DNA of 32,000 bases, taken from NCBI RefSeq assembly GCF_000195975.1, contig NC_005070.1:1380001-1412000 (forward strand). The letters are read 5' to 3'. Below are positions 2,859 to 26,906 of the stretch, piece after piece. The notes under the pieces were generated by a model, which was given only the letters and a program-made list of their open reading frames with translations, did not search any database and was not told where the DNA came from. Origin of the DNA: Parasynechococcus marenigrum WH 8102. GTDB lineage: Bacteria > Cyanobacteriota > Cyanobacteriia > PCC-6307 > Cyanobiaceae. Numbering within the stretch: position 1 is the first letter of the stretch; each line of letters opens with the position of its first letter. The translations under genes and the position numbers were made by a program.

Positions 2859-3031
2859 GGCGGTTTCAGCAAAATTCTCTGTTGTGTAGCCGCATGAACT
2901 ACACAACCCTGGCCAGAGCCTGTAGGACAGATGTGTAGCACCTGCTACTGCACGTTCACCTCACCACTGGCGAGGCGCAGTTCGACTCAGGCCATGGAAC
3001 GGGGACCTGAGCTTGCTTCGAGGAACCCATC

Positions 3032-3756: not shown

Positions 3757-3859
3757 GAGCCGATCAGGCCTTGGTCCTGAAGGTCTGGCTGGTACGACGT
3801 CATTCCGTAGCTGATCACACCGCGCGTGCCACCGGTGCCGCAGACAGTGGAAGGGCGGA

Positions 3860-3955
3860 GAAACCTAGGGTTCCGATCCCGTCAGGGATGCCTGGTCCGA
3901 GAGGTTTCGGTCGGTTCTGCCGGCTGCACGGAGGGACAAAAGCCCGGGAGACCGC
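3860..3955 (+). promoter_or_regulatory. Guanidine-I (ykkC/yxkD) riboswitch aptamer
   Basis: Conserved blocks CUAGGGUUCCG (3865-3875), GGUCCGAGAG (3894-3903) and ACGGAGGGAcAAAAGCCCGGGAGA (3928-3951). There is also a GAUCCC/GGGAU hairpin at 3875-3889. It lies directly 5' of a ureohydrolase gene. Confidence 0.85.
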
Positions 3956-3977
3956 CACAACACCAACTCCCCCTCCG

Positions 3978-5168
3978 ATGTCATCCCCAACGGACCCCAA
4001 CGGGGCCTTTCAGCGTTCGCATCCCAGCGAAGGCACTCAGGCGCTCGAGAAGGAACGCAAGCTGCCCCTCACCGGCTGGCAGCAGGAAGTTGATCAGGCC
4101 AAGCGCCTGGGTCTTGAAGCGGCCGAAAGCATCGTGGACCGCAACATCTCCACGTTCTCCCGCGGCGAGCTGCCCCACTTCGCGGGCATCAACACCTTCA
4201 TGAAGGCGCCCTACCTGGAGGATGTGAACCAGGTGGGCAACTACGACGTGGCCATCGTCGGGGTGCCCCACGACTGCGGCACCACCTACCGCCCCGGCAC
4301 CCGCTTCGGGCCACAGGGCATCCGCCGCATCTCGGCCCTCTACACCCCCTACAACTACGAAATGGGGGTGGATCTGCGCGAACAGATCACCCTCTGCGAT
4401 GTCGGCGACATCTTCACCATTCCGGCCAACAACGAGAAGAGCTTCGATCAGATCTCTAAGGGCATCGCCCACGTGTTCGCCAGCGGCGCATTCCCGATCA
4501 TTCTCGGCGGCGATCACTCCATCGGCTTCCCCACAGTGCGCGGCGTCTGCCGCCATCTGGGTGACAAGAAAGTGGGCATCATCCACTTCGACCGCCACGT
4601 CGACACCCAGGAGATCGACCTGGACGAGCGGATGCACACCTGCCCCTGGTTCCATGCCACCAACATGGCCAATGCTCCGGCTGAGAACCTGGTGCAGCTC
4701 GGCATCGGCGGCTGGCAGGTGCCGCGCGAGGGCGTGAAGGTCTGCCACGAACGCGGCACCAACGTGCTCACCGTCACGGACATCACCGAAATGGGGTTGG
4801 AGGCGGCAGCCCAGTACGCGATCGAACGGGCCACTGACGGCACCGACTGCGTTTACATCTCCTTTGACATCGACTGCATCGATGCCGGCTTCGTTCCCGG
4901 CACCGGCTGGCCCGAACCCGGCGGTCTGCTGCCGCGCGAAGCACTCAAGCTGCTCGAGCTGATCGTGCGCAATGTGCCGGTGTGCGGTCTCGAAATCGTG
5001 GAGGTGTCGCCGCCGTACGACATCAGCGACATGACCTCACTGATGGCCACCCGCGTGATCTGCGATGCCATGGCCCACCTGGTGGTCAGCGGCCAGCTGC
5101 CCCGCAAGGACAAGCCGGCCTGGATCAGCGATGTCTGCAACATGAACGTCGATCAGAAGTGGAGATAA
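3978..5168 (+). CDS. gdmH: Ureohydrolase-fold guanidine hydrolase candidate (GdmH / Sll1077-like; arginase-agmatinase family)
   Basis: Metal-ligand blocks GGDHS, FDRHVD and SFDIDCID. The start is set at ATG 3978 because 3771-3977 of the track ORF is riboswitch RNA. Gene order riboswitch-hydrolase-HypA-HypB-ABC matches what I recall for the Synechocystis sll1077 locus. Confidence 0.8.
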   Translation: MSSPTDPNGAFQRSHPSEGTQALEKERKLPLTGWQQEVDQAKRLGLEAAESIVDRNISTFSRGELPHFAGINTFMKAPYLEDVNQVGNYDVAIVGVPHDCGTTYRPGTRFGPQGIRRISALYTPYNYEMGVDLREQITLCDVGDIFTIPANNEKSFDQISKGIAHVFASGAFPIILGGDHSIGFPTVRGVCRHLGDKKVGIIHFDRHVDTQEIDLDERMHTCPWFHATNMANAPAENLVQLGIGGWQVPREGVKVCHERGTNVLTVTDITEMGLEAAAQYAIERATDGTDCVYISFDIDCIDAGFVPGTGWPEPGGLLPREALKLLELIVRNVPVCGLEIVEVSPPYDISDMTSLMATRVICDAMAHLVVSGQLPRKDKPAWISDVCNMNVDQKWR

Positions 5169-8950: not shown

Positions 8951-10002
8951 TGAAGGCTCCGCAACGGTTTCTGCCGGCCCAGGCCTATACCGATCCGGAG
9001 TTGTATCGCTGGGACTGCAGCGGTTACGCCCAGCGCTACTGGCATCCCCTGGTCGCTGGATCGGCCCTGCCGGCCGGCCACAGCCTGGCTCTAACCCTGC
9101 TGAATCAGCCCCTTCTGCTCACCCGAGCCGAGGACGGACCCCCCCGCGCCTTTCTCAACCGCTGCCCCCACCGCGGCGTGGCCTTCCAGCACGAACGCGA
9201 GGGAGCAACCGCCTGCCGTCGCCTGATCTGCCCGTACCACGGCTGGACCTACAGCCTGGAAGGGGAGCTGCTGGCCGCGGCGCGCGAGCAGGGCTTCGAT
9301 CCCCCCTTCCATCGCCAGGACTGGCCGCTCCCTTCCCTGCCTTGCCGCGAGGATGGCCCCTTGATCTGGGTCGCACTCACCCAGGCGGTGACGCCCCTGG
9401 ACCAGCAGCTCGACCTGGTGCATCAACGGGTGGCGGACCTCTGGACCCAGCCCCTCCATCAGGTGCGGATCCTGCAGCGCACCCTGCGCTGCAACTGGAA
9501 GATCGCCCACGACAACACCCTCGACGACTACCACGTCGCCGTGGCCCATCCAACGACTCTGCACCGCGAACAGGGGCCGGTGCGCGATTACGTCCACCAC
9601 ACCACGGCCCTGGTGAACCTGCTGGTGACGCCCCACGCCGATGGCGGTTGCTTTCACACCTTTGGCCTGCCGCCCTGGCTACATCTGATCACCTGGCCGG
9701 ACGGCCGTCTGGCGTTGTTGGAGTTTCTGCCCCTCAGCCTCGACAGCTGCTGCATGCAGTTGCGGCTGTTCGCTCCCAGCGCAGCCAGCGGCGAACCGCC
9801 GACGGATGCGGCCAACAAAGCCTGGTTGAAAGAGCTGCTGGCCTTTTTGGACGAGGACCAGCCCCTGGTCGAATCCGCTCAGCGCGGCTACCGCAGTGGA
9901 CTCGTGCCCGGTCCACCCCACGGGCTCGAGCAACGGATCATCCACTGGCAGGAGATCTACCGACAGGTGCTGCCCAAAGAGCTGGCCCAATCGCTCAGCT
10001 GA
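8950..10002 (+). CDS. Rieske [2Fe-2S] non-heme-iron oxygenase, alpha-subunit type
   Basis: Rieske motif CPHRG...CPYHGW and mononuclear Fe motif DDYHVAVAH (D-x2-H-x4-H). ATG 8950 overlaps the ATPase TGA by 1 nt; the track starts it at GTG 8947. Confidence 0.85.
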   Translation: MKAPQRFLPAQAYTDPELYRWDCSGYAQRYWHPLVAGSALPAGHSLALTLLNQPLLLTRAEDGPPRAFLNRCPHRGVAFQHEREGATACRRLICPYHGWTYSLEGELLAAAREQGFDPPFHRQDWPLPSLPCREDGPLIWVALTQAVTPLDQQLDLVHQRVADLWTQPLHQVRILQRTLRCNWKIAHDNTLDDYHVAVAHPTTLHREQGPVRDYVHHTTALVNLLVTPHADGGCFHTFGLPPWLHLITWPDGRLALLEFLPLSLDSCCMQLRLFAPSAASGEPPTDAANKAWLKELLAFLDEDQPLVESAQRGYRSGLVPGPPHGLEQRIIHWQEIYRQVLPKELAQSLS

Positions 10003-10039
10003 TCGCGCCCAGCCGGATCACCCGGTTCGAATCCGCCAT

Positions 10040-10780
10040 TCACACCGGAACCGGTGAGCGCAGCTCAGCATGCAGCGCATCCCAGAAACGCTTGCGATCC
10101 TCGATCACCTGGCGCTTCACCTGCTCCACCCGTTGCATCGCCTTGGCGTCGTCCCCCACTAGGGCCAGCACCATTGCCTCGGCCAACGGGCCATGGCTGT
10201 CGCCATCGAGGGCGATGTGGCGTTCGAGGTACCAGCACAACGTTGGACAGGGCAACGCCAGGGCCTGCAGTCGCTTCAGCAGCGCACGGAACAGATCCGG
10301 CACCAACAGCTCCCGGCCGTAGGCAAACGCCGCAGCCAGGGCATGGCTCTCACCATCCTGAATCAGCACCTGCGTGGTAGTGAGAAAACGGGCTGCAGCG
10401 GGCGGGATCCGCGGGTGTGGCACAGCGCTGCCGAGATCACCGGCCATCGCCTGCTGCAGCACCGCGTCGATGGCCGAGGTGTCGGCACCGATCTCCACCA
10501 TCGCCCGGCGGTAGATGCCGAAATGGGACAGATGCAACGGGCCACCGAGGGCCTCAGGCAGACAATCACACTCCTCCTCCGCCACCAGGCTGTTGATCAA
10601 CCCGGCGCTGCGCGGATGCTTGGGCGGCACCCAGGGAACACCGGATGGTGCCAGGTGCTGCTGCAGCGCCTTGAGCAACAACATGAAGTCCCACACCGCA
10701 AACACGTGGTGTTCAACGAACACCCGAAGATCTGCGATAGAAACAATCGCCTCCGGCAAGGGATGGCGCTGGAGATCCAT
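10040..10780 (-). CDS. DUF3050-family protein (heme-oxygenase-like fold)
   Basis: VEHHVFAVWDFMLLLKAL near the N-terminus is the pattern I associate with DUF3050. 246 aa, all-helical composition. Confidence 0.65.
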   Translation of the reverse strand: MDLQRHPLPEAIVSIADLRVFVEHHVFAVWDFMLLLKALQQHLAPSGVPWVPPKHPRSAGLINSLVAEEECDCLPEALGGPLHLSHFGIYRRAMVEIGADTSAIDAVLQQAMAGDLGSAVPHPRIPPAAARFLTTTQVLIQDGESHALAAAFAYGRELLVPDLFRALLKRLQALALPCPTLCWYLERHIALDGDSHGPLAEAMVLALVGDDAKAMQRVEQVKRQVIEDRKRFWDALHAELRSPVPV

Positions 10781-10782
10781 CG

Positions 10783-11250
10783 TCAGAGGCCCAGTTCCGT
10801 CAGACCCGGGAAATCATCGGGTCTTGGGCCATCACCCCAGGTGAACAGGAGATCGCCCTCCGCGATCGGCACGTCGTTGATGCTGGCCTCACGCCGGCGC
10901 ATCAACCCGTTCTCGGCAAATTCCCAGTTCTCGTTGCCATGGGCGCGAAACCACTGCCCCTCGGCGTCATGCCACTCATATTGGAAACGCACAGCGATGC
11001 GGTTACCGGAACACGCCCACACTTCTTTGATCAATTTGTAGTCCAGTTCCTTCGCCCACTTGCGTTGCAAAAAAGCGAGAATCTCAGCCCGGCCGTGGAT
11101 GAATTCACTGCGATTGCGCCAGACACTGTCCTCCGTATAGGCCAATGAAACCTTGTCTGGATCCTTGCTGTTCCACGCATTTTCGGCCATCCGTGCCTTC
11201 TGCTGCGCGGTTTCGAGGGTGAACGGTGGAAAGGGAGGTTTTCCGGTCAT
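10783..11250 (-). CDS. DUF1348-family protein (NTF2/SnoaL-like fold)
   Basis: [43 protein letters not shown] matches the DUF1348 N-terminal pattern. Ends 2 nt before the DUF3050 start. Confidence 0.7.
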
Positions 11251-11295
11251 GGCATTAACAAATTGGGGGAAGGAAAGAGGGGATGCATCACAGGG

Positions 11296-11622
11296 TCAGG
11301 GCAACTGACTGATCACCCGCACGTTCTGATCGGGCTTGTAGCGGGCAATCCACTGGCGCAGCTGGGATTCCTCTTCGTCCGTGCGGGTGCAGGCAAATCC
11401 ATAGCGGGCACGAACCCGTTCGGAAGCAGCCCGCAGTGCCCTGACACCCAACGATTCCAGTTCCGACACCCGAAATGAATCGCCTGGTTTCAGATACTCA
11501 AGAATCACAGTTGATGGTGAATACAACGTGCTGGATTGGCCATCCGGCCATTCCAACTGAAAGCGAACCTCAGGCATCCATCCGTACACATTTGTTGGAT
11601 CCTGCAACAGGCCATTCGGCAT
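11296..11622 (-). CDS. MSMEG_0570-family nitrogen-starvation-response protein (Nit1C member, NitG-equivalent)
   Basis: 108-aa ORF from ATG 11622 (MPNGLLQDPTNVYGW...), 7 nt after the AIR-synthase-like stop. Assigned by position and size in the Nit1C order. Confidence 0.6.
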   Translation of the reverse strand: MPNGLLQDPTNVYGWMPEVRFQLEWPDGQSSTLYSPSTVILEYLKPGDSFRVSELESLGVRALRAASERVRARYGFACTRTDEEESQLRQWIARYKPDQNVRVISQLP

Positions 11623-11629
11623 CGCTGTC

Positions 11630-12607
11630 TCATCCGCCACAGCCGAATCCGGTGAGTCCGCTCGCCACCTCCCAGAGGCAATGCGACGCCCCGGAGATCT
11701 GCAGCAGCACCCGGCATTCACCGGTGCTGAAGCGACCGATCCGACAGCAGATCAGGTCCGGATCGCCCTGCAGCATCCTCACCAGGGTTGACGTCCGGGA
11801 CGGATCCACGGCCAGCAAGTAGCCGAAGCTCGGGAAACAGCTGAGCCAGGCCTGTTCCTCCACCCCATCAGGGCGGTCCACCGCATCCAGATCGATGCTG
11901 AGCTCCAGGCCACAGGCTTCGGCAAACATCACCGACGTTCCCGTCAGTCCACCCATGCTGATGTCCTTGGCAGCGCGCACCAGGCCCTCAGCCGCCAGTG
12001 CCGGCAGCAGGCTCAGATGGGAGCGCAGTCGAGCTGGGGTGGCATGGGTGGCCGCATCCCAGAAGGGGTAATGGCGGTAAAAGGCTCCGTTTTTGTTCAC
12101 GAGCATCCACAGTTCGTCGCCGGGTGCTGCCGCCCGGGCGGAGAGCACCGGCCCCTCTGCCACCCCAAGAACGGCAACCGACAACGCTGTGTAGGGACTC
12201 TGTTGATTGGAATGCCCCCCCACCATCGGCACCCCGAAGCTCTCACAGGCGAATCGCATCCCCTCCAGCAGAGGCTGCAACGCATCTGCACCACCACTCC
12301 AGACACTGTTAACCAACGCCAGCGGTCGACCGCCCATCGCCGCGATGTCGCTCAGATTCACCAGCACACCGCTCCAGCCGGCAAACCACGGGTCCTCCTC
12401 CACCAGCCCAGGTTGCATGCCCTCACAGGCCAGCAATAGCTGGCCGTTCTGGCGAGGAAGCAGAGCGGCATCATCCCCCAGCATCCCCGCTGCACCAAGC
12501 TGCGGGAACGGCTGGTGGCAAAACATCCCGGCCGCTGGCTGAATGTCGCGTTTGGCCAGCAGACCGCTGTGCAGCCGCAGCCCATCCATCAGCTCGGTAA
12601 AGCTCAT
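11630..12607 (-). CDS. sll0787-type AIR-synthase-like (PurM/HypE superfamily) protein
   Basis: GDDAALL motif and PurM-like two-domain length. Its ATG overlaps the GNAT stop (ATGA). Confidence 0.8.
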   Translation of the reverse strand: MSFTELMDGLRLHSGLLAKRDIQPAAGMFCHQPFPQLGAAGMLGDDAALLPRQNGQLLLACEGMQPGLVEEDPWFAGWSGVLVNLSDIAAMGGRPLALVNSVWSGGADALQPLLEGMRFACESFGVPMVGGHSNQQSPYTALSVAVLGVAEGPVLSARAAAPGDELWMLVNKNGAFYRHYPFWDAATHATPARLRSHLSLLPALAAEGLVRAAKDISMGGLTGTSVMFAEACGLELSIDLDAVDRPDGVEEQAWLSCFPSFGYLLAVDPSRTSTLVRMLQGDPDLICCRIGRFSTGECRVLLQISGASHCLWEVASGLTGFGCGG

Positions 12608-13275
12608 GCGGCAAGGGATGGCAGGAGCGAACATGACGGCCGCCGCTCCCGCGACGGCGCGTAGTAATTGAGATCGGCCTGCATCAGGTGATGCCGGATG
12701 CCACGGATCTCGAGTTCCTCAATCGAGGCCCAGTGCAGACGGCGAAAGAAACGCACGTTCTGAATCTGCACCATGGCCATGAAACGATCACAGCCCCAGC
12801 CGTTGGCGGTGGTGACCGCCTTCCAGATCAACCCCTTGCCGATCTGGTTGTGACGGCGAAAGTCGCTGTGCACCCCGAGCCGTCCGCCATACCAGAGCCG
12901 TGGTTCGGTCTCCACGATCCGCACCACACCCACCACCTGGGATTCCGGGCCCTGCTTATCTTCGTCGGGTTGACAGTCGTGATGCAGGGCCGCGATCGGA
13001 CAGGCGATGCGGTCGAGTTCATCCCGATCGGACTGTTCGAACACGTGCTGCTCTTCGCAGAAGATGCTGCGCCGCAACGACCAGTAACCCGCGATCAGGG
13101 GCGAATCGGGACGCAGCAGGTGAAAGCTGAACCGATCCGAACTGGCGGTGGGCGACAGGCGGAAATCATCGGCGTCGATGCCGATGCCAGCCCGCACCGA
13201 AGGGGTGAACAGGCTGGGGGCGGAGCTGATGCTGCGGCCGATGCCACGGCTGCTGGGATCGAGACAGAACACCAT
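12604..13275 (-). CDS. MSMEG_0567/Sll0786-type GNAT N-acetyltransferase
   Basis: GNAT motif A-like RRHNQIGKG. Start ATG 13275 lies 2 nt after the radical SAM stop. The longer track ORF (to 13512) would overlap the upstream gene. Confidence 0.75.
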   Translation of the reverse strand: MVFCLDPSSRGIGRSISSAPSLFTPSVRAGIGIDADDFRLSPTASSDRFSFHLLRPDSPLIAGYWSLRRSIFCEEQHVFEQSDRDELDRIACPIAALHHDCQPDEDKQGPESQVVGVVRIVETEPRLWYGGRLGVHSDFRRHNQIGKGLIWKAVTTANGWGCDRFMAMVQIQNVRFFRRLHWASIEELEIRGIRHHLMQADLNYYAPSRERRPSCSLLPSLAA

Positions 13276-13277
13276 GG

Positions 13278-14369
13278 TCAGGCCGCCTGCTCGAACAGCG
13301 ACAGCGCCGAACAGGCTCCACATTTGGCGCAACCGGCCGACATCGCCTCGGAGCGCAGATCTCCTTGGTGCAGCAGCTCGGCAACCCCCTTGTAGACGTC
13401 GACCATGAAGGCTGTGTCCGGTGCCGGATGGTGCTCCAAGGGTGTGCCGGAGATCGGCACAAACGGAACCACAAACGGGTAGACCCCCAGTTCGATCAGG
13501 CGGCGGCTGCAATCGAGCAGTGCCTCCCGGCTGTCGCCCAGGCCGGCCAGCAGATAGGTGGACACCTCTCCTCGCCCGAACACGGCGACAGCATCGGCGA
13601 AGGCCGCGTAGTAACGCTCGAGGCTGAGCTCCGATTTGCCCGGAAGGATGCGACGCCGCACCTCCAGCTCCACCACCTCGAGGTGCATGCCGAGGCTGTC
13701 GATTCCCGCAGCCTTCATCCGCTCGTACCAGATCGGATCATCGGGGGGTTCGCACTGCCCCTGGATCGGCAGATCGACCCGACGCTTCACCGCCGCGGCC
13801 GTCTCGGCCATCAGCCGGGCGCCGCGGTCATCGCTGTTGGGGGTGCCGGTGGTCATCACCAGCTGCTTCACACCATCCAGGCGCACCGCAGCTTCCGCAA
13901 CCTCGGCCACCTGCTCCGGGGTCTTGCGGATCACCGTGGCGCCGTCCTCAAGGGACTGCTCGATGGCGCAGAACTGGCAGGACTGGGAGCGATCTCGGAA
14001 GCGGATACAGGTCTGCAACAGCGTGGTGGCCAGCACATCTCGGCTGTGCAGCAAGGCGATGGAGCGGTAGGGGATCCCCTCCGCCGTGCTCAGGCCATAG
14101 AAGGCCGGTTCATCTGTGGTGGTCACCACAGGCAGGGCGTCCTGCTGAGGACCGGTCAGGGTCAAGCCGTCACCACGTGCCGCCAGGCTGTACGCCGATG
14201 AGCCGGAGACGTCGTTGTAAACGGGCACCATCACCGTGGTGCCATCCACATTCAGGGCCCTGTGGTCAGAGGGGCCAGCCCCGCCGCGCCGGCCCCGGTT
14301 TCCCTCCAGTGGTTCGGCCCGAACCCCCTTCACCTGCAGTTCGGTCACCAGGCGTCCGAGCTCAGACAT
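13278..14369 (-). CDS. MSMEG_0568-type radical SAM protein
   Basis: Cys cluster [14 protein letters not shown] and a TIM-barrel-like rSAM core (VMTTGTPNS). Its start overlaps the nitrilase stop by 8 nt (ATGTCTGA). Confidence 0.8.
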
Positions 14370-15378
14370 GGTTGATCTCCTCGATCACATGGGACATCCC
14401 GGCGGCCATTGACGTTTCGGCCATCGACGTTTCGGATGGAACCGGATCGCTCGCCATCTCCTGCATCGCTACGGCCGTGTTGCGATTGATCCGCAGCGAC
14501 AACAGTTCCGGACGGCTGTAATGGCCGACGCTGTCCATCATTCGCTTGCGCTTGGTGATCAAGGCCAGATCGAGTTCGGCGATGGCCAGGCCTTCACCGT
14601 CCGGCAAGGGACCCGCCAGGTAGCGGCCTTCAGGACTGATCACAGCGGTGTGACAGCCCCCTTGAAACGCCTTGTGCAACGAAGCATCTGGCGTGATCGC
14701 CGCATAGTCCTCCGGATCCAGCCATCCGGTGGAGCAGATCACGAAACAGCCAGCCTCCAGGGCGTGATGCCGCATGGTAACGGCGGTCTGCTCGCTGAAG
14801 ATCGGCCCGACCAGCGACCCGGGGAACTGGGCGCAGTGGATCTCCTCGCCCTGGACCATCAACGCGTAGCGCGCCAGCGGGTTGTAGTGCTCCCAGCAGG
14901 CCAACGCCCCGACCCGACCAAGCGGGGTGGACACCACCGACAGGCCGGAACCGTCCCCCTGCCCCCACACCATCCGCTCGTGATAAGTGGGAGTGATCTT
15001 GCGGCGCTTGAGAGCGATCTCGCCGCAACTGTTGAACAGCAACTGGGTGTTGTAGAGCGTGCCACCGTCCCGTTCGTTCACCCCCAGCAACACCTGCATG
15101 CCGTGCTGCCGTGCGGCCGCTGCCACCGCATCCGTGACCGGTCCGGGCACCACCACAGCCTGGTCATAGAGCGCCAGGTGGGAGCGCCCCATGCGAACCG
15201 GGGGCTCAACAAATGAGAAGTAGGGGTAATAGGGCAGGAACGTCTCCGGAAAGACGATCAGCTCAACGCCTTCGGCCGCCGCTTCGGCCATCGCGTCGAG
15301 CACCTTCTGAAGAGATCCATCCAGGCTGAACAGGACGGGACGGATCTGGGCAGCGGCAACTTTGACAGTGGTCACCAT
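14362..15378 (-). CDS. Nit6803/Nit1C-type nitrilase
   Basis: Catalytic triad contexts FPETF (Glu), [12 protein letters not shown] (Lys) and ACWEHYNP (Cys). Confidence 0.9.
14406..14435. repeat. Tandem 15-nt duplication inside the nitrilase 3' end
   Basis: ccattgacgtttcgg / ccatcgacgtttcgg with 1 mismatch. It encodes [10 protein letters not shown] in the C-terminal tail. Confidence 0.9.
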
Positions 15379-15398
15379 GAAATAGGTACGACGCCGAC

Positions 15399-15881
15399 TC
15401 AGAGCGTCCAGGTGTCGAGGATGAAGGCCCCTTCCTTGCGATGCATCAGCACGATGTCGAGCACATCAAGGGGATTCACCGGGGTGATGCCCGGCATGAG
15501 CGCCTTCTCGCTGTGTCCGTAAAGCGCCTGCAGAGCGAAGCGACAGGCGTACACCTTTCCCCCCTGATCCATGAACTTCTGCAGCCGTGCGTTGAAGTTC
15601 AGGTGACCATCAAAGGCGGCATCACCGAGCTTGGGGAATCCACGCATCACACCGAGGGTGACGCCAGGGCCATAGAGCAGAACAGAGGTTTCAAACCCTT
15701 TGGTGATCAGACGGCTGGCCTGCAGAAGATTGACCAGGCCAATAGAACCTTCGAAAGCAACGGTGTGAAACGTGACCAAGGCCTTTTCACCCGGCTCAGC
15801 CTTCACATCGGGAAAGACTTTTTCCTCGTAGTCAACAAGATAATCCCCCGGCTGGTTAGCGGGACGGTCGACGACAGGCAT
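15399..15881 (-). CDS. MSMEG_0572/Sll0783-family nitrogen-starvation-response protein (first gene of the Nit1C string)
   Basis: 160 aa from ATG 15881 ([18 protein letters not shown]...). The track's TTG-initiated 212-aa version would consume the divergent promoter region. Confidence 0.7.
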
Positions 15882-16067
15882 GTGAAGAAACCATAAGGAC
15901 TCAAAGACTGGCTCCGGTCGGCCCACAAAAAATGTACGAAATACGACCAAATTCGAGACTGAATCAAACTGGATGACAGCGGGAGCGCAATCAAATTCGG
16001 TGGCCTTGGCTACAACACAAGTGTTGATTTCAAACAAGGATTAGGGCATTAAGTCATGTGCTGATTG

Positions 16068-17378
16068 ATGCTGCACAGCGCGCATGATGTCGCCCGATTC
16101 AAGTCCGATCATGCGGTTGTGGTGATCGGAGCCGGTCAGGCCGGACTTTCGGTGGCCTATCAGTTGCAGCAAAGGGGCATCCGTCCTGTGGTGCTGGAAA
16201 AGCACCGCATCGGATACGCCTGGGATCAGCAACGCTGGGATTCTTTCTGCCTGGTCACCCCCAACTGGCAATGCCGCTTGCCGGACTTCCCCTACGACGG
16301 CAACCAGCCCGAGGGGTTCATGCCCAAGGCAGAGATCGTGGCGTACCTGCAACGCTTCGCGCGGCACGTGGGTGGAGATGTGCGCGAGGGGGTCGCCGTT
16401 CAACGGCTGACCCCGAAAGGCAGTGGTTATCGGCTGATCACCAGCGAAGGCGAGATGGAGGCTGAACATGTGGTGGTGGCCACCGGCGGGTATCACGCCC
16501 CCCGGCGCCATCCCCTGGCCGAACGGCTGCCGGCCTCCGTGCTCCAACTCGATGCCCGTGCTTACCGCAACCCGGCGGCGCTACCGGAAGGCCCCGTATT
16601 GGTGGTGGGCAGCGGCCAGTCCGGCAGCCAGATCGCGGAGGACCTGCACCTGTCCGGCCGCACCGTGCACCTCAGTGTGGGCAGCGCCCCTCGATCCCCA
16701 CGGGTGTACCGCGGCCGGGATGTGGTCGATTGGCTGGACCGGATGGGCTACTACGCCATGCCGATCAGCGACCATGCCGACCCCCGCAGCGTCCGCGCCA
16801 AAACCAACCACTACCTCACCGGTCGCGATGGTGGCCGTGAAATCGATCTGCGCCATCGCGCCACCGAGGGCATGCGTCTGCATGGCCGTCTCGCAACCAT
16901 CGCCACTGACCACATCGGCTTTGCCGATGATCTCGCCGGCAACCTCGATCAGGCCGATGCGGTTTATTGCCGCATCCGCAGCAGCATCGACAGCTGGATC
17001 CAGCAGCAGGGCATCGAGGCCCCCCTCGAGCCCCCCTATTCCCCCTGCTGGCAACCATCAGCGATGGCCGACCCCGGCATCGATCTCAGCCGGGATCCAC
17101 TCGCTGCGGTGATCTGGTGCACCGGGTACCGCAGCGACTTCAGCTGGATCGATGCTCCGGTGTTCGATGGTGCCGGCCTGCCGGCCCATGAGCGTGGGGT
17201 CACCCAGAGCGCGGGGCTCTACTTCCTTGGTCTGCCCTGGCTGCACACCTGGGGATCCGGTCGCTTCTGCGGCGTCAGCGACGATGCCGACTACCTCGCG
17301 AGGCTGATCAGTCTGCGGCTGCAACGCCGCGATGCCAGCCAGGAGCGGCTGGAGTGCACCGCGATCCTGGGCTCCTGA
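16068..17378 (+). CDS. MSMEG_0569-type flavin-dependent oxidoreductase (class B monooxygenase-like)
   Basis: Two dinucleotide-binding motifs, VIGAGQAGL and VVGSGQSGSQ. Divergent from the Nit1C string. Confidence 0.85.
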   Translation: MLHSAHDVARFKSDHAVVVIGAGQAGLSVAYQLQQRGIRPVVLEKHRIGYAWDQQRWDSFCLVTPNWQCRLPDFPYDGNQPEGFMPKAEIVAYLQRFARHVGGDVREGVAVQRLTPKGSGYRLITSEGEMEAEHVVVATGGYHAPRRHPLAERLPASVLQLDARAYRNPAALPEGPVLVVGSGQSGSQIAEDLHLSGRTVHLSVGSAPRSPRVYRGRDVVDWLDRMGYYAMPISDHADPRSVRAKTNHYLTGRDGGREIDLRHRATEGMRLHGRLATIATDHIGFADDLAGNLDQADAVYCRIRSSIDSWIQQQGIEAPLEPPYSPCWQPSAMADPGIDLSRDPLAAVIWCTGYRSDFSWIDAPVFDGAGLPAHERGVTQSAGLYFLGLPWLHTWGSGRFCGVSDDADYLARLISLRLQRRDASQERLECTAILGS

Positions 17379-17385
17379 ACTGCTC

Positions 17386-18228
17386 TCAACGCATGGAGTT
17401 GTGCAGGGCGGTGCGGAGCCAGGAGGCCATCTGTGTGTTGAGACTGGCGACATCAGCCACCGGTTCAGCACTGAAGGGCTGCAGTGGCATGTAGCCATCA
17501 GGGCCGAATTCAGGCGTGATCGTGGCCGGCGCCTTCTCCTGATCAAACGATTCCAGAAAGAATTGCCAACAAGAGCGATGAGCCTCCAATGCTTCGGTCC
17601 ACTCCGGCGCAAAGGGATGGCTGACTGAGGGGCCCTGGGCATGACCGACCCGTGCATGGATGTGGTCGACCCGCCCTGCCATGGCCTGCACCGGTAGGAG
17701 ATCAGGCGTCATCAACCGCTCGGCAACACAACACCAATGGCTCAGGTCTGCCGTGAGCCGCATCCGTGGATGTCGCTCCAGCCACACCGGCATCTGCCAG
17801 GGGTTAGCCAGGCTCCGGCTGCGATGGGTCTCCAGCATCACGGCGCATGGCACGGTGTCGATGCGGTCGAGAACAGCCTTGAAAAAACGATGCTGGACGT
17901 CCTCAGACCAGCTGTCACTGCCAATGATCAGATTGATCTTGAGCGGTTCCATGGCCAGCGCACGACTCAGCAACGCCTCAAGTTGTTCGAGATGCTGTTC
18001 GGGACCATGGGCCAGATCTGGGGTGTAGCCGCCCCCAGTCGTGATCTCGAGGATCAGCGCTTGCCTTCTCTTGCCGAGGAGCTGCCGAACATCCGTTGCA
18101 TCAATCCGCTCCAGACACGAATGAACCACATTGCATTCGAGACCATCAAATCCGTGAGTTGATGCACGGCTGGAAGCTGACTCGAAAGAACCATTCCAGC
18201 CCCAGAGAGATTGCAGCAACAACACCAC
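17386..18228 (-). CDS. Sugar-phosphate isomerase/epimerase-like (xylose-isomerase-like TIM barrel) protein
   Basis: Length and pattern are typical of AP-endonuclease-2/xylose-isomerase-like TIM barrels. The start is placed at GTG 18228, 1 nt after the upstream micro-ORF stop; the ATG of the track ORF at 18312 would overlap that ORF. Confidence 0.55.
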   Translation of the reverse strand: MVLLLQSLWGWNGSFESASSRASTHGFDGLECNVVHSCLERIDATDVRQLLGKRRQALILEITTGGGYTPDLAHGPEQHLEQLEALLSRALAMEPLKINLIIGSDSWSEDVQHRFFKAVLDRIDTVPCAVMLETHRSRSLANPWQMPVWLERHPRMRLTADLSHWCCVAERLMTPDLLPVQAMAGRVDHIHARVGHAQGPSVSHPFAPEWTEALEAHRSCWQFFLESFDQEKAPATITPEFGPDGYMPLQPFSAEPVADVASLNTQMASWLRTALHNSMR

Positions 18229-18229
18229 G

Positions 18230-18358
18230 TCAGTGCTCGTCGGTGAACATGTGCGGCTGTATACCGAGGTAAATGGCCTCGCGGAACAGGACTCGTTTCG
18301 CCTTGGCATCACCTCGCTGGTGAGCCTCGCGGAACCGTCTCTGAAGGGAGGAGATCAT
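18230..18358 (-). CDS. Possible 42-aa basic microprotein
   Basis: MISSLQRRFREAHQRGDAKAKRVLFREAIYLGIQPHMFTDEH. Abuts the TIM-barrel gene start. Confidence 0.35.
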   Translation of the reverse strand: MISSLQRRFREAHQRGDAKAKRVLFREAIYLGIQPHMFTDEH

Positions 18359-25322: not shown

Positions 25323-25487
25323 TCACACCTTGGCCTTGCGCAGATTGCCCAGGTCGTGGGCCAACTCCCGCAAGCCGGTCACGAACCCGATGCTGGCAAC
25401 GCTCACGATCCCCACAATGATCACGGTCTCCAACAGAGCGTGGGGATCGTTGAGCAGGGCGGTCCAGGCGCTGGTGAGTGCTGTCAT
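25323..25487 (-). CDS. Possible 54-aa membrane microprotein
   Basis: [54 protein letters not shown]. The longer track ORF would overlap the DUF2130 start. Confidence 0.35.
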
Positions 25488-25538
25488 CTCGTCAGAATCT
25501 GCGTTCTCCTGTTGGTAGCAACACCTTCGTCTGAGGCC

Positions 25539-26906
25539 ATGCACGACATCATCTGCCCGCACTGCAGCAAGGCGTTCAAGGTGGATGAGGCCGGCTATGC
25601 CGACATCCTCAAGCAGGTGCGTGACCGGGAGTTCGAGCAGCAACTGAGCAAACGACTGGCGCTGGCGGAGCAGGAGAAACGCAATGCCATCGACTTGGCT
25701 CTGGCCCGAAAGCAGACGGAACTACAGGAGCTGGAGGCGCAGCTGCGGGCTCGGGATGTGAAGCAGGAACTGGCGGTGAAAGAAGCCGTGAGCACCGCCG
25801 AGAAGCAGCGGGATCTCCTGGCCAGCGAATTGCAGCAGATGCGGGAAAGTGGTGAAACCGCTGCCCGCATGGCGGAGACGCGTTTTGCTAAGGAGATCCA
25901 GACGCTCACCTTGCAGAAAGACGGAGAAGTCCGCGATCTGAAAGCGCAGCTGGAGGCCAGCGGCATAAAGACCAAACTGGCGGTGACCGAAGCTCTCAGT
26001 GGTGTTGAAAAAGAGCGCGACGAGCTCCGCAACAGCCTGAGCCAAAGCGAGCTCAAGCATCAACTGGACACCCAGTCGATGAAAGAGCGCTATGAGCTGC
26101 AGATTCACGATCGAGATCAGGCGATTGAACGCCTGCGGGACATGAAGGCACGGCTCTCCACAAAAATGGTGGGAGAGACATTGGAACAGCACTGCGAAAC
26201 GGAGTTCAACCGCATCCGGGCCGCAGCTTTTCCCAGGGCTTACTTCGAGAAGGACAACGACGCACGCAGTGGCAGCAAGGGGGATTACATCTTCCGAGAC
26301 AGTGACGAAGCCGACAACGAAATCATCTCGATCATGTTTGAGATGAAAAATGAGGCAGACACCACCGCCACCAAAAAGAGGAACGAGGACTTCCTCAAGG
26401 AACTCGACAAGGACCGACGCGAGAAAGGCTGTGAATACGCCGTGCTGGTGTCCCTGCTTGAAGCAGACAGTGAGCTCTACAACTCAGGAATCGTTGATGT
26501 CTCCCACCGCTTCGCCAAGACCTATGTGATCCGGCCCCAGTTCTTCATTCCGTTCATCACGCTGTTGCGCAACGTTGCCTTGAAATCATTGGAGGTCAAA
26601 GCCGAACTGGCCCTGGTGAAGGCTCAGAACATCGACGTGACCAATTTTGAAAACGACCTTGAGTCGTTCAAGACAGCCTTCTCCCGCAACTACGACCTCG
26701 CCTCCCGCCGCTTCCAGACGGCCATCGATGAAATCGACAAATCCATCGACCATCTGCAGAAAACCAAGGACGCACTTCTCGGTGCCGATCGCAACCTGCG
26801 CCTTGCCAACGACAAGGCACAGGATGTTTCCGTCAAAAGACTGACACGACGCAACCCGACGATGGCCCAGAAATTCGCCGAGTTGCAGGATCAGGATTCC
26901 GCCTGA
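25539..26906 (+). CDS. DUF2130-family protein (N-terminal zinc ribbon, long coiled coil, C-terminal nuclease-like domain)
   Basis: [24 protein letters not shown] start, an extended coiled coil, and a C-terminal ...GDYIFRD...IMFEMKNE... block. The start is trimmed from the track ORF. Confidence 0.75.

Follow-up and report, generated by a model that had tools for sequence, protein, structure and literature searches.

Nitrogen starvation or cyanide induces the Nit1C gene cluster, which is conserved across phyla and abundant in ocean Synechococcus. It was described in 2005, and twenty years later neither the pathway nor the natural substrate has been established; its nitrilase turns over even the best nitrile substrates poorly (PMC7815647). 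As originally described, Nit1C comprises seven genes with nothing conserved outside them (Podar 2005, PMC1199592), and the cluster of seven nit genes delineated as an eCAG in marine picocyanobacteria, located in genomic island Syn_GI068, likewise ends at nitG (Dore 2023). Here, we consider a stretch of 32,000 nucleotides from Parasynechococcus marenigrum WH 8102 (NC_005070.1, positions 1,380,001 to 1,412,000; hereafter the window), in which a complete Nit1C cluster is followed by two further genes that encode an NTF2-like DUF1348 protein and a heme-oxygenase-like DUF3050 protein. The original prediction, made from the letters of the window, placed this pair outside the canonical cluster, in agreement with both descriptions. 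It also called the combination apparently undescribed, which is true of its interpretation and not of its layout: nitH, nitB-G, ntf2, and DUF3050 have been drawn, uncommented, for the Antarctic Synechococcus-like metagenome-assembled genome (MAG) "Ca. Regnicoccus frigidus" from Ace Lake (Panwar 2022, PMC9716671, Fig. 8). The frequency of the pair, its three states (both genes, DUF1348 only, or neither), and its connection to the enzyme HamA are not pointed out in the literature that we searched.

HamA, encoded in the fragin/valdiazen cluster of Burkholderia cenocepacia, is the one characterised homologue of the DUF3050 protein. It is described as a heme-oxygenase-like enzyme (structure 9VWB) that holds one iron in a 2His-1Glu motif, binds 2-oxoglutarate (2OG), and oxygenates N-hydroxyvaline tethered to the HamD carrier domain, with a reported Fe:protein ratio of 1.5 (PMC12522199). 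Together with HamE, it is listed in reviews as a putative N-N bond-forming enzyme (PMC11705231).

With some reserve, we favor the view that the DUF1348-DUF3050 pair is a lineage-specific, dispensable extension of Nit1C in picocyanobacteria of the Synechococcus/Cyanobium type, co-transcribed with the cluster, and that its HamA-family protein widens or modifies Nit1C chemistry. The last cistron (10040..10780, minus strand) encodes 246 amino acids (aa) and matches PF11251, named HamA_HO-like in the newer Pfam release, over residues 3 to 235 with 244.2 bits (E 1.8e-72; gathering cut-off, 22.2 bits), next to a weak match to Haem_oxygenas_2. The penultimate cistron (10783..11250, minus strand) encodes a 155-aa NTF2-like/SnoaL-like protein that matches PF07080 over its full length with 218.2 bits (E 3.7e-65; gathering cut-off, 22.1 bits) and also matches SnoaL_2. 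The two genes are 2 nt apart, and a pyrimidine-rich spacer of 45 nt without a hairpin (11251..11295) separates DUF1348 from nitG, all on the minus strand; the coordinates, strand, and spacings in the original prediction were exact. The Nit1C cluster itself is complete in the window (G+C content, 60%), all seven families (nitB-nitH) exceeding their NCBIfam cut-offs, and six co-directional nit genes lie directly upstream of the pair.

The attachment of the pair to Nit1C recurs in many other loci. Metagenome contigs were scanned with a nitG alignment, and 49 loci with at least 1.3 kb of sequence downstream of nitG could be scored. The order nitG-DUF1348-DUF3050 was found in 33 of these and nitG-DUF1348 only in 4, while 12 had neither gene and none had DUF3050 without DUF1348. 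Viewed from the other side, all DUF3050 relatives of at least 45% identity whose context was read lie directly behind nitG-DUF1348 (L001-L007, L088, L091, and L092; identities of 45 to 74%, G+C contents of 48 to 66%), and this clade was never encountered away from nitG-DUF1348 in more than 40 loci. In the related loci with gene calls read, the nitG-DUF1348 spacers measure 14 to 58 nt and the DUF1348-DUF3050 gaps -1 to 15 nt, except for a doubtful start call in L091, and no regulator intervenes. The flanks outside the nine-gene block vary by locus and include toxin-antitoxin genes, an RNA methyltransferase gene, unknown genes, and, in the window, a guanidine operon. In a neighbor-joining tree, the Nit1C-linked DUF3050 proteins group in a single clade to which HamA does not belong. 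Purifying selection acts on both genes (dN/dS of 0.14 to 0.28 for DUF3050 and 0.01 to 0.13 for DUF1348, compared with 0.08 to 0.37 for nitF); DUF1348 is very constrained, and DUF3050, the most divergent protein of the nine-gene block, is under a constraint similar to that of nitF. A nitG-DUF1348 fusion suggested by a 226-aa call in L001 was rejected, as it consists of an unrelated N-terminal over-extension before a normal 155-aa DUF1348; the nitG of L001 was found separately by tblastn.

Outside the cyanobacteria, the picture is different. None of 79 DUF3050 loci (37 to 44% identity, mostly from Bacteroidota) has a Nit1C gene within 10 kb; the linkage to Nit1C that the original prediction proposed to look for in genome neighborhoods was seen in picocyanobacteria only. 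Clustering of the open reading frames (ORFs) around these 79 loci revealed taxon-level synteny only (acyl-CoA dehydrogenase, 16; ferredoxin, 10), and no general functional partner of DUF3050 outside cyanobacteria emerged from it. In 10 of the 79 loci, a putative 2Fe-2S adrenodoxin-type ferredoxin ORF lies just downstream on the opposite strand (e.g., L065 1965-3356), and 6 of those 10 also carry a putative FNR/thioredoxin-reductase-type flavoprotein ORF, both being identified by reading the sequences. Possibly, these ORFs serve as electron supply for the DUF3050 oxygenase, or they may reflect plain synteny within Flavobacteriia. Two gammaproteobacterial MAGs contain a DUF1348-TetR-DUF3050 cassette (L008, 7408-10723; L050, 160-1973), and the pair thus recurs as a unit. 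In L008, a cyanate lyase gene (cynS) is located about 1 kb upstream of the cassette on the same strand.

The pair shares the strand of the nit genes, is joined to them by short gaps, shows no terminator signal, and keeps its order in relatives despite changing flanks. An intrinsic-terminator scan from 9500 to 17000 gave no site in the nitG-DUF1348 spacer; the sole minus-strand match in this region is a weak 5-bp stem within the DUF3050 coding region (10759-10747), and the region yielded 3 sites compared with 4.8 expected by chance. Likewise, a 101-nt stretch over the spacer does not fold better than shuffled sequence (z, -0.14), so that the pattern scan and the fold comparison bear out the earlier claim that no terminator hairpin lies between 11250 and 11296. 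Scans of the region for sigma-70 promoters and intrinsic terminators returned nothing usable. We take the tight spacing, the lack of a regulator or terminator signal, and the finding of this DUF3050 clade exclusively behind nitG as arguments that the pair is co-transcribed with Nit1C and functionally connected to it. Hence, DUF1348 and DUF3050 are most likely co-transcribed with Nit1C, and with their strand, tiny gaps, lack of a terminator, and order kept in dozens of loci they behave as the cistrons 7 and 8 that they had been proposed to be. At the other end of the pair, a long GC-rich hairpin (9995..10069) covers the 37 nt that separate the stop of DUF3050 (10040) from that of the convergent Rieske gene (10002). 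The fold of 9960-10070 reaches -52.2 kcal/mol (z, -2.2; 6 of 200 shuffles are equally stable), and the hairpin, which has no U-tract and is not a canonical intrinsic terminator, may be the end of both convergent transcripts. An imperfect NtcA-like box, GTCGTATTTCGTAC (about 15935-15948, minus strand; one mismatch to GTA-N8-TAC), is situated between the divergent nitB and nitH genes, some 55 to 65 nt ahead of the nitB start, and would fit nitrogen control of the Nit1C operon.

Turning to the DUF3050 protein, HamA is its only solved relative by sequence (9VWB, E 3.4e-49), and a sequence-profile search of the PDB for further heme-oxygenase-like diiron oxidases/oxygenases (HDOs) with which to align ligands found HamA alone. 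An AlphaFold2 model based on 30 homologues (predicted local distance difference test [pLDDT], 90.1; predicted template modeling score [pTM], 0.88) matches HamA with a template modeling (TM) score of 0.84 and 38% identity over the structural alignment. When PDB folds are ranked against the model, a comparison with HDOs that the original prediction had suggested, HamA comes first and CADD second, followed by HrmI, FlcD, PolF, and UndA; these last five match with TM scores of 0.56 to 0.69 and identities of 13 to 18%. AetD and SznF are absent from the top 50 fold matches. Residues H40/E84/H96/R167/H199/R240 of HamA align with H25/E69/H86/R156/H188/R229 of the window protein, so that the iron ligands (E84, H96, and H199) and the proposed 2OG contacts (H40, R167, and R240) are all conserved. 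The ligand named "Glu184" in the HamA paper (PMC12522199) does not fit the 9VWB numbering that reproduces all other named residues, position 184 being Ile and the nearby Glu residues being E168 (in the invariant GRE motif), E181, and E185.

In an alignment of 88 members, H25, E69, E70, D72, H86, R156, E157, H188, D192, H196, and R229 are invariant. Both elements of the earlier reading, a heme-oxygenase-like fold and His/carboxylate metal residues, are thereby upheld, and the four His/Glu/Asp-rich motifs quoted at the time are present in the translation and contain family-invariant residues. Six of the invariant positions (E69, H86, E157, H188, D192, and H196) could make up the 3-His/3-carboxylate site typical of HDOs, and the model distributes the His/carboxylate residues over four separate predicted helices, in keeping with the HDO core helices. 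With this residue set, a second metal site is possible, although the solved homologue shows one iron; the second iron in the HDO superfamily is known to be labile. Relative to the H-x3-D-x2-H spacing, which we take to be that of CADD, the last His is shifted by one residue. In addition, the site differs from that of HamA in one respect: Glu206 of HamA, which the HamA paper singles out and which is said to replace the His of the second site, corresponds to Ser195 in the window protein and to Ser, Asn, Thr, or Gln across the Nit1C-linked clade. Glu occupies this position in 50 of the 77 sequences outside the clade, and both HamA and the proteins of L008 and L050 have it. All in all, DUF3050 probably is a heme-oxygenase-like, non-heme-iron oxygenase. 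Elsewhere in the family, DUF3050 is joined in one protein with a truncated globin (P0132), with a DUF420 membrane domain (P0201 and P0203), or with a B12-binding radical SAM domain (P0154, 762 aa). P0198, of equal length and with DUF3050 at the same position, may be another fusion of the latter kind, and P0122 is a tandem duplicate.

The DUF1348 protein aligns over its full length with the structure 2IMJ (P. fluorescens Pfl_3262; E 5e-66) and is 79 to 98% identical among the related loci. The family is uniform in general: 233 of 292 matching plasmid records show 60 to 80% identity, and the best 25 of these, which come from proteobacteria, actinomycetes, and Deinococcus, share 65 to 70% identity with the window protein. 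Outside Nit1C, DUF1348 genes usually stand alone or beside a TetR regulator, and plasmid DUF1348-TetR neighborhoods in several phyla include PNPOx, GST, PhzF, and cysteine-hydrolase genes. None of the DUF1348 proteins is known to have an activity, and the NTF2 fold is also that of dehydratases, for example scytalone dehydratase (PMC4608573).

In the simplest reading, the 3' end of Nit1C gained DUF1348 and DUF3050 in a picocyanobacterial ancestor, and the nine genes would since have been kept, or moved, as one unit in genomic island Syn_GI068, with repeated losses of the pair in which DUF3050 went first. Transcription would most likely start at the nitB promoter, with the pair as cistrons 7 and 8. 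DUF3050 would bind iron via E69/H86/H188, leaving E157, D192, and H196 available for a second site, and would most likely hydroxylate a small nitrogen-containing substrate, or oxidise it in some other way, with O2. Judging from the conserved iron site and from HamA, this O2-dependent oxidation plausibly occurs at nitrogen. The NTF2-like DUF1348, with its closed hydrophobic cavity, would probably bind or convert (isomerise or dehydrate) the same or a neighboring intermediate. Together, the two would most likely widen or modify the scope of the Nit1C enzymes (flavin oxidoreductase, radical SAM protein, GNAT, PurM-like enzyme, and nitrilase) under nitrogen scarcity. Co-transcription, the dependence of DUF3050 on iron and O2, and a substrate shared with Nit1C are what we infer.

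Several observations weigh against the pair being a functional extension of Nit1C. It is absent from about a quarter of the sampled picocyanobacterial Nit1C clusters (the 12 loci mentioned above), from four scorable low-GC loci (L133, L134, L135, and L137; GC, 0.30 to 0.35), two of which are among the 12 and which we take to be Prochlorococcus-type from their low GC, and from the seven clusters of other phyla in the original description (Podar 2005, PMC1199592). In 77 of the 79 non-cyanobacterial DUF3050 loci, DUF1348 and Nit1C are both lacking, and the two families mostly stand alone elsewhere. Clustering by field distribution did not put the pair with the seven nit genes (Dore 2023). Also, picocyanobacteria share ancestry, so that common descent, and not selection, may account for part of the conserved adjacency. 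Co-transcription of the pair with the nit genes is deduced from sequence features. Finally, the biochemistry of HamA comes from one paper, and its mono-iron/2OG claim is hard to square with 1.5 Fe per protein and with a second iron that is labile in HDOs, which calls for caution regarding a mono-iron site.

The loci without a full pair indicate how it may be lost. Genome-derived Nit1C clusters without the pair are found in L087 and in the MIT S9452-type locus L089/L090; the 264-aa gene behind nitG in MIT S9452-type Synechococcus was considered as a divergent DUF3050 and rejected (BLASTP E 0.04, no Pfam family). In the four DUF1348-only loci (L151, L156, L162, and L163), unrelated DNA follows nitG-DUF1348, and no DUF3050 was found despite 4 kb of downstream sequence. 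L117 has only a 44-residue DUF1348 remnant after nitG, a sign of loss in progress. The absence of the pair from many Nit1C clusters implies that Nit1C works without it and that the pair is accessory, not a core step. Three further loci (L165, L171, and L173; JGI Ga0222675, Ga0208768, and Ga0222702), which may belong to the Ace Lake series according to their JGI sample names, carry behind nitG-DUF1348 a DUF3050 that is only 38% identical to the window protein and about equally close to non-cyanobacterial members and to the Nit1C-linked clade, suggesting either very fast divergence or a separate acquisition. L166 contains a degraded Nit1C, in which a nitH fragment adjoins a truncated nitE while nitF and nitG remain; hence, Nit1C itself decays in some lineages.

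The main rival explanation, which we consider possible though rather unlikely, sees in the pair an independent passenger, a self-contained small-molecule detoxification or stress unit that came to lie by chance at the 3' end of Nit1C in a genomic island and is read through, but whose substrate has nothing to do with the nitrilase pathway. The DUF1348-TetR-DUF3050 cassettes of L008 and L050, which occur without Nit1C, would fit such a module, as would the plasmid-borne DUF1348-TetR genes in several phyla, the stand-alone DUF3050 genes of Bacteroidota, the location of Nit1C in island Syn_GI068, and the absence of the pair from many Nit1C clusters and from the seven-gene eCAG. Against this rival, the DUF3050 clade was encountered solely behind nitG-DUF1348, and the pair is devoid of a regulator and a recognisable promoter of its own. 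Furthermore, the attachment persists while the surroundings of the nine genes change, and upon loss, DUF1348 remains with the cluster (in four loci) and DUF3050 is never left alone.

A second alternative, which we consider unlikely, assigns the pair a more specific chemistry, namely the supply of nitriles or of N-oxygenates. Here, an amine or guanidine, perhaps first N-hydroxylated by the flavoprotein NitH, would be converted by the HDO into an N,N-dihydroxy, oxime, or nitroso species. The NTF2-like protein would dehydrate this to a nitrile for NitC to hydrolyse, in an aldoxime-nitrile route, or an N-N bond would arise as has been proposed for HamA. The oxygenation of carrier-bound N-hydroxyvaline by HamA, a candidate N-N former, is in line with this, as are the presence of the N-oxygenase HrmI and the oxime-processing FlcD among the top folds, the matches of NitH to Lys/Orn N-hydroxylase and FMO-type Pfam families, and the dehydratases within the NTF2 fold. 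The argument is one of analogy, however. Among the scanned window ORFs, we found neither an NRPS-like (nonribosomal peptide synthetase-like) carrier of the HamD/PvfC kind nor an AurF-like partner (HamC/PvfB); no ORF of the window is longer than 516 aa, and loci L001-L006 and L088 are likewise without an NRPS-like carrier and an AurF-like N-oxygenase. HamB, considered as a counterpart of DUF1348, was rejected because it is a cupin. AetD and SznF rank outside the top 50 structural matches, position 195 carries Ser, Asn, Thr, or Gln in the Nit1C-linked clade versus Glu in most of the family, and Nit1C clusters without the pair would be left without a substrate source. Nitrile formation as by AetD and guanidine N-oxygenation as by SznF are compatible with the data by analogy only. 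From the N-oxygenating or nitrile-forming HDO of the original prediction, we retain N-oxygenation as a reasonable lead through HamA and regard nitrile formation as speculation; nothing in the fold comparison points specifically to an AetD-like enzyme, and the carrier-tethered substrate of HamA, which has no counterpart here, weakens that idea further.

A bolder combination, which we put forward more tentatively still, would have a HamA-type enzyme act on a free or NitG-bound nitrogen compound instead of an NRPS-tethered one. With NitH and the NTF2-like protein as partners, the enzyme would constitute a branch of O2-dependent N-oxidation, leading from an amine via a hydroxylamine to an oxime, a nitrile, or an N-N species, that makes or pre-processes the physiological substrate of NitC. 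If so, Nit1C would be an oxidative nitrogen-salvage or signalling pathway and not a simple cyanide/nitrile scavenger. Least probable is that DUF3050 is a true heme oxygenase, a heme-binding protein, or a CADD-like self-sacrificing cofactor synthase unrelated to nitrogen scavenging, since, despite the heme-oxygenase fold, the second rank of CADD, and the globin and DUF420 fusions of some family members, HmuO heme oxygenases match the model with TM scores of only 0.48 to 0.52 at 11 to 12% identity, the invariant residues are the carboxylate/His set of HDOs, and the solved homologue HamA holds non-heme iron.

As to the remainder of the locus, the six minus-strand nit genes begin with nitB of the MSMEG_0572/Sll0783 family (15399..15881; TIGR04044, 268.8 bits), the first cistron, whose start was set at MPVVDRP since the family match begins at residue 55 of the mechanical ORF and homologues are 160 aa long. 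It is followed by nitC, a Nit6803-family nitrilase gene (14362..15378; TIGR04048, 572.8 bits), nitD of the MSMEG_0568-family radical SAM proteins (13278..14369; TIGR04043, 571.6 bits), and nitE, encoding a GNAT N-acetyltransferase (12604..13275; TIGR04045, 214.7 bits), which presumably starts at a Met 2 nt past the nitD stop, judging from the translation and the 205- to 222-aa calls in related loci. The sll0787-family AIR-synthase-like gene nitF (11630..12634; TIGR04049, 425 bits) and nitG of the MSMEG_0570 family (11296..11622; TIGR04042, 114.9 bits) complete the series; nitG may start at the ATG at 11622 or, as in most homologues, at the MPEV start at 11577, with gene calls of 108 and 93 aa. 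The MSMEG_0569-family flavin-dependent oxidoreductase gene nitH is divergent (16065..17378, plus strand; TIGR04046, 646 bits), and a 308-aa ORF without a family match lies directly behind it (17386-18312, minus strand).

On the other side of the pair, a plus-strand guanidine operon ending at 10002 comprises genes for an agmatinase-like (GdmH-type) protein, hypA, hypB, an SsuA/TauC/TauB-like ABC transporter, and a Rieske oxygenase, in the arrangement described by Dore 2023. The mechanical ORF 3771-5168 contains a Guanidine-I riboswitch (3854-3952, plus strand; 87.5 bits; gathering score, 63), and the agmatinase-like gene must therefore start downstream of it. The guanidine operon that the original prediction saw facing Nit1C is thus genuine, but it is not a conserved neighbor: no GdmH or Rieske homologue occurs within 10 kb of the pair in any of the seven related loci L001-L007. 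We therefore rejected a conserved link and regard the juxtaposition as two nitrogen-scavenging islands side by side, not a functional unit. Further upstream, a Glutamine-II riboswitch (2950-3011, plus strand; 68.7 bits) directly follows a perfect NtcA-type box, GTAGCACCTGCTAC (2935-2948), one of two such boxes in the window compared with 0.17 expected. Elsewhere, the window encodes a cytochrome P450 (815-2059, plus strand) and a DUF2130 protein (25356-26906, plus strand).

The nine-gene form, which occurs in many marine and freshwater picocyanobacteria, brings to a long-unsolved pathway a testable chemical lead whose functional content we infer: a widespread variant contains an iron oxygenase-like enzyme from a family implicated in hydroxylamine and diazeniumdiolate chemistry, hinting at an O2-dependent step on a nitrogen group. 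Closely related strains with both extra genes, DUF1348 only, or neither would serve as natural controls, and a defined genetic context for substrate hunting becomes available for DUF1348 and for the non-NRPS DUF3050 proteins, both of them very large and uncharacterised families.

In comparison with known systems, the window shares with canonical Nit1C (nitHBCDEFG; Pseudomonas nit1C, Synechocystis sll0783-0787, and M. smegmatis MSMEG_0566-0572) all seven families, in the cyanobacterial order with a divergent nitH, but has two further cistrons past nitG, in a nine-gene form seen only in picocyanobacteria and not in all of these. The contig of "Ca. Regnicoccus frigidus" from Ace Lake, to which L165, L171, and L173 probably correspond, has the same gene order, whereas its DUF3050 is only distantly related to ours, at the 38% identity noted above. 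The DUF1348 family, represented by 2IMJ and Cercospora 71cR, is uniformly conserved and includes the window protein; its members are alone or TetR-linked elsewhere, while here the gene is fixed to the end of Nit1C. With other HDOs (CADD, HrmI, FlcD, PolF, UndA, and, more distantly, SznF and AetD), the DUF3050 protein has the seven-helix heme-oxygenase-like core in common. It is closest to the HamA/PvfA/MgoB family of the ham, pvf, and mgo clusters for diazeniumdiolates and pyrazine N-oxides, with the same Pfam family, the same fold, and conserved ligands, although it belongs to a separate tree clade and has Ser in place of Glu206 of HamA. In those clusters, the enzyme is accompanied by an NRPS carrier, an AurF-like N-oxygenase, or a polyketide-cyclase-like partner, none of which lies nearby in the window, where its partner is DUF1348 and its context Nit1C.

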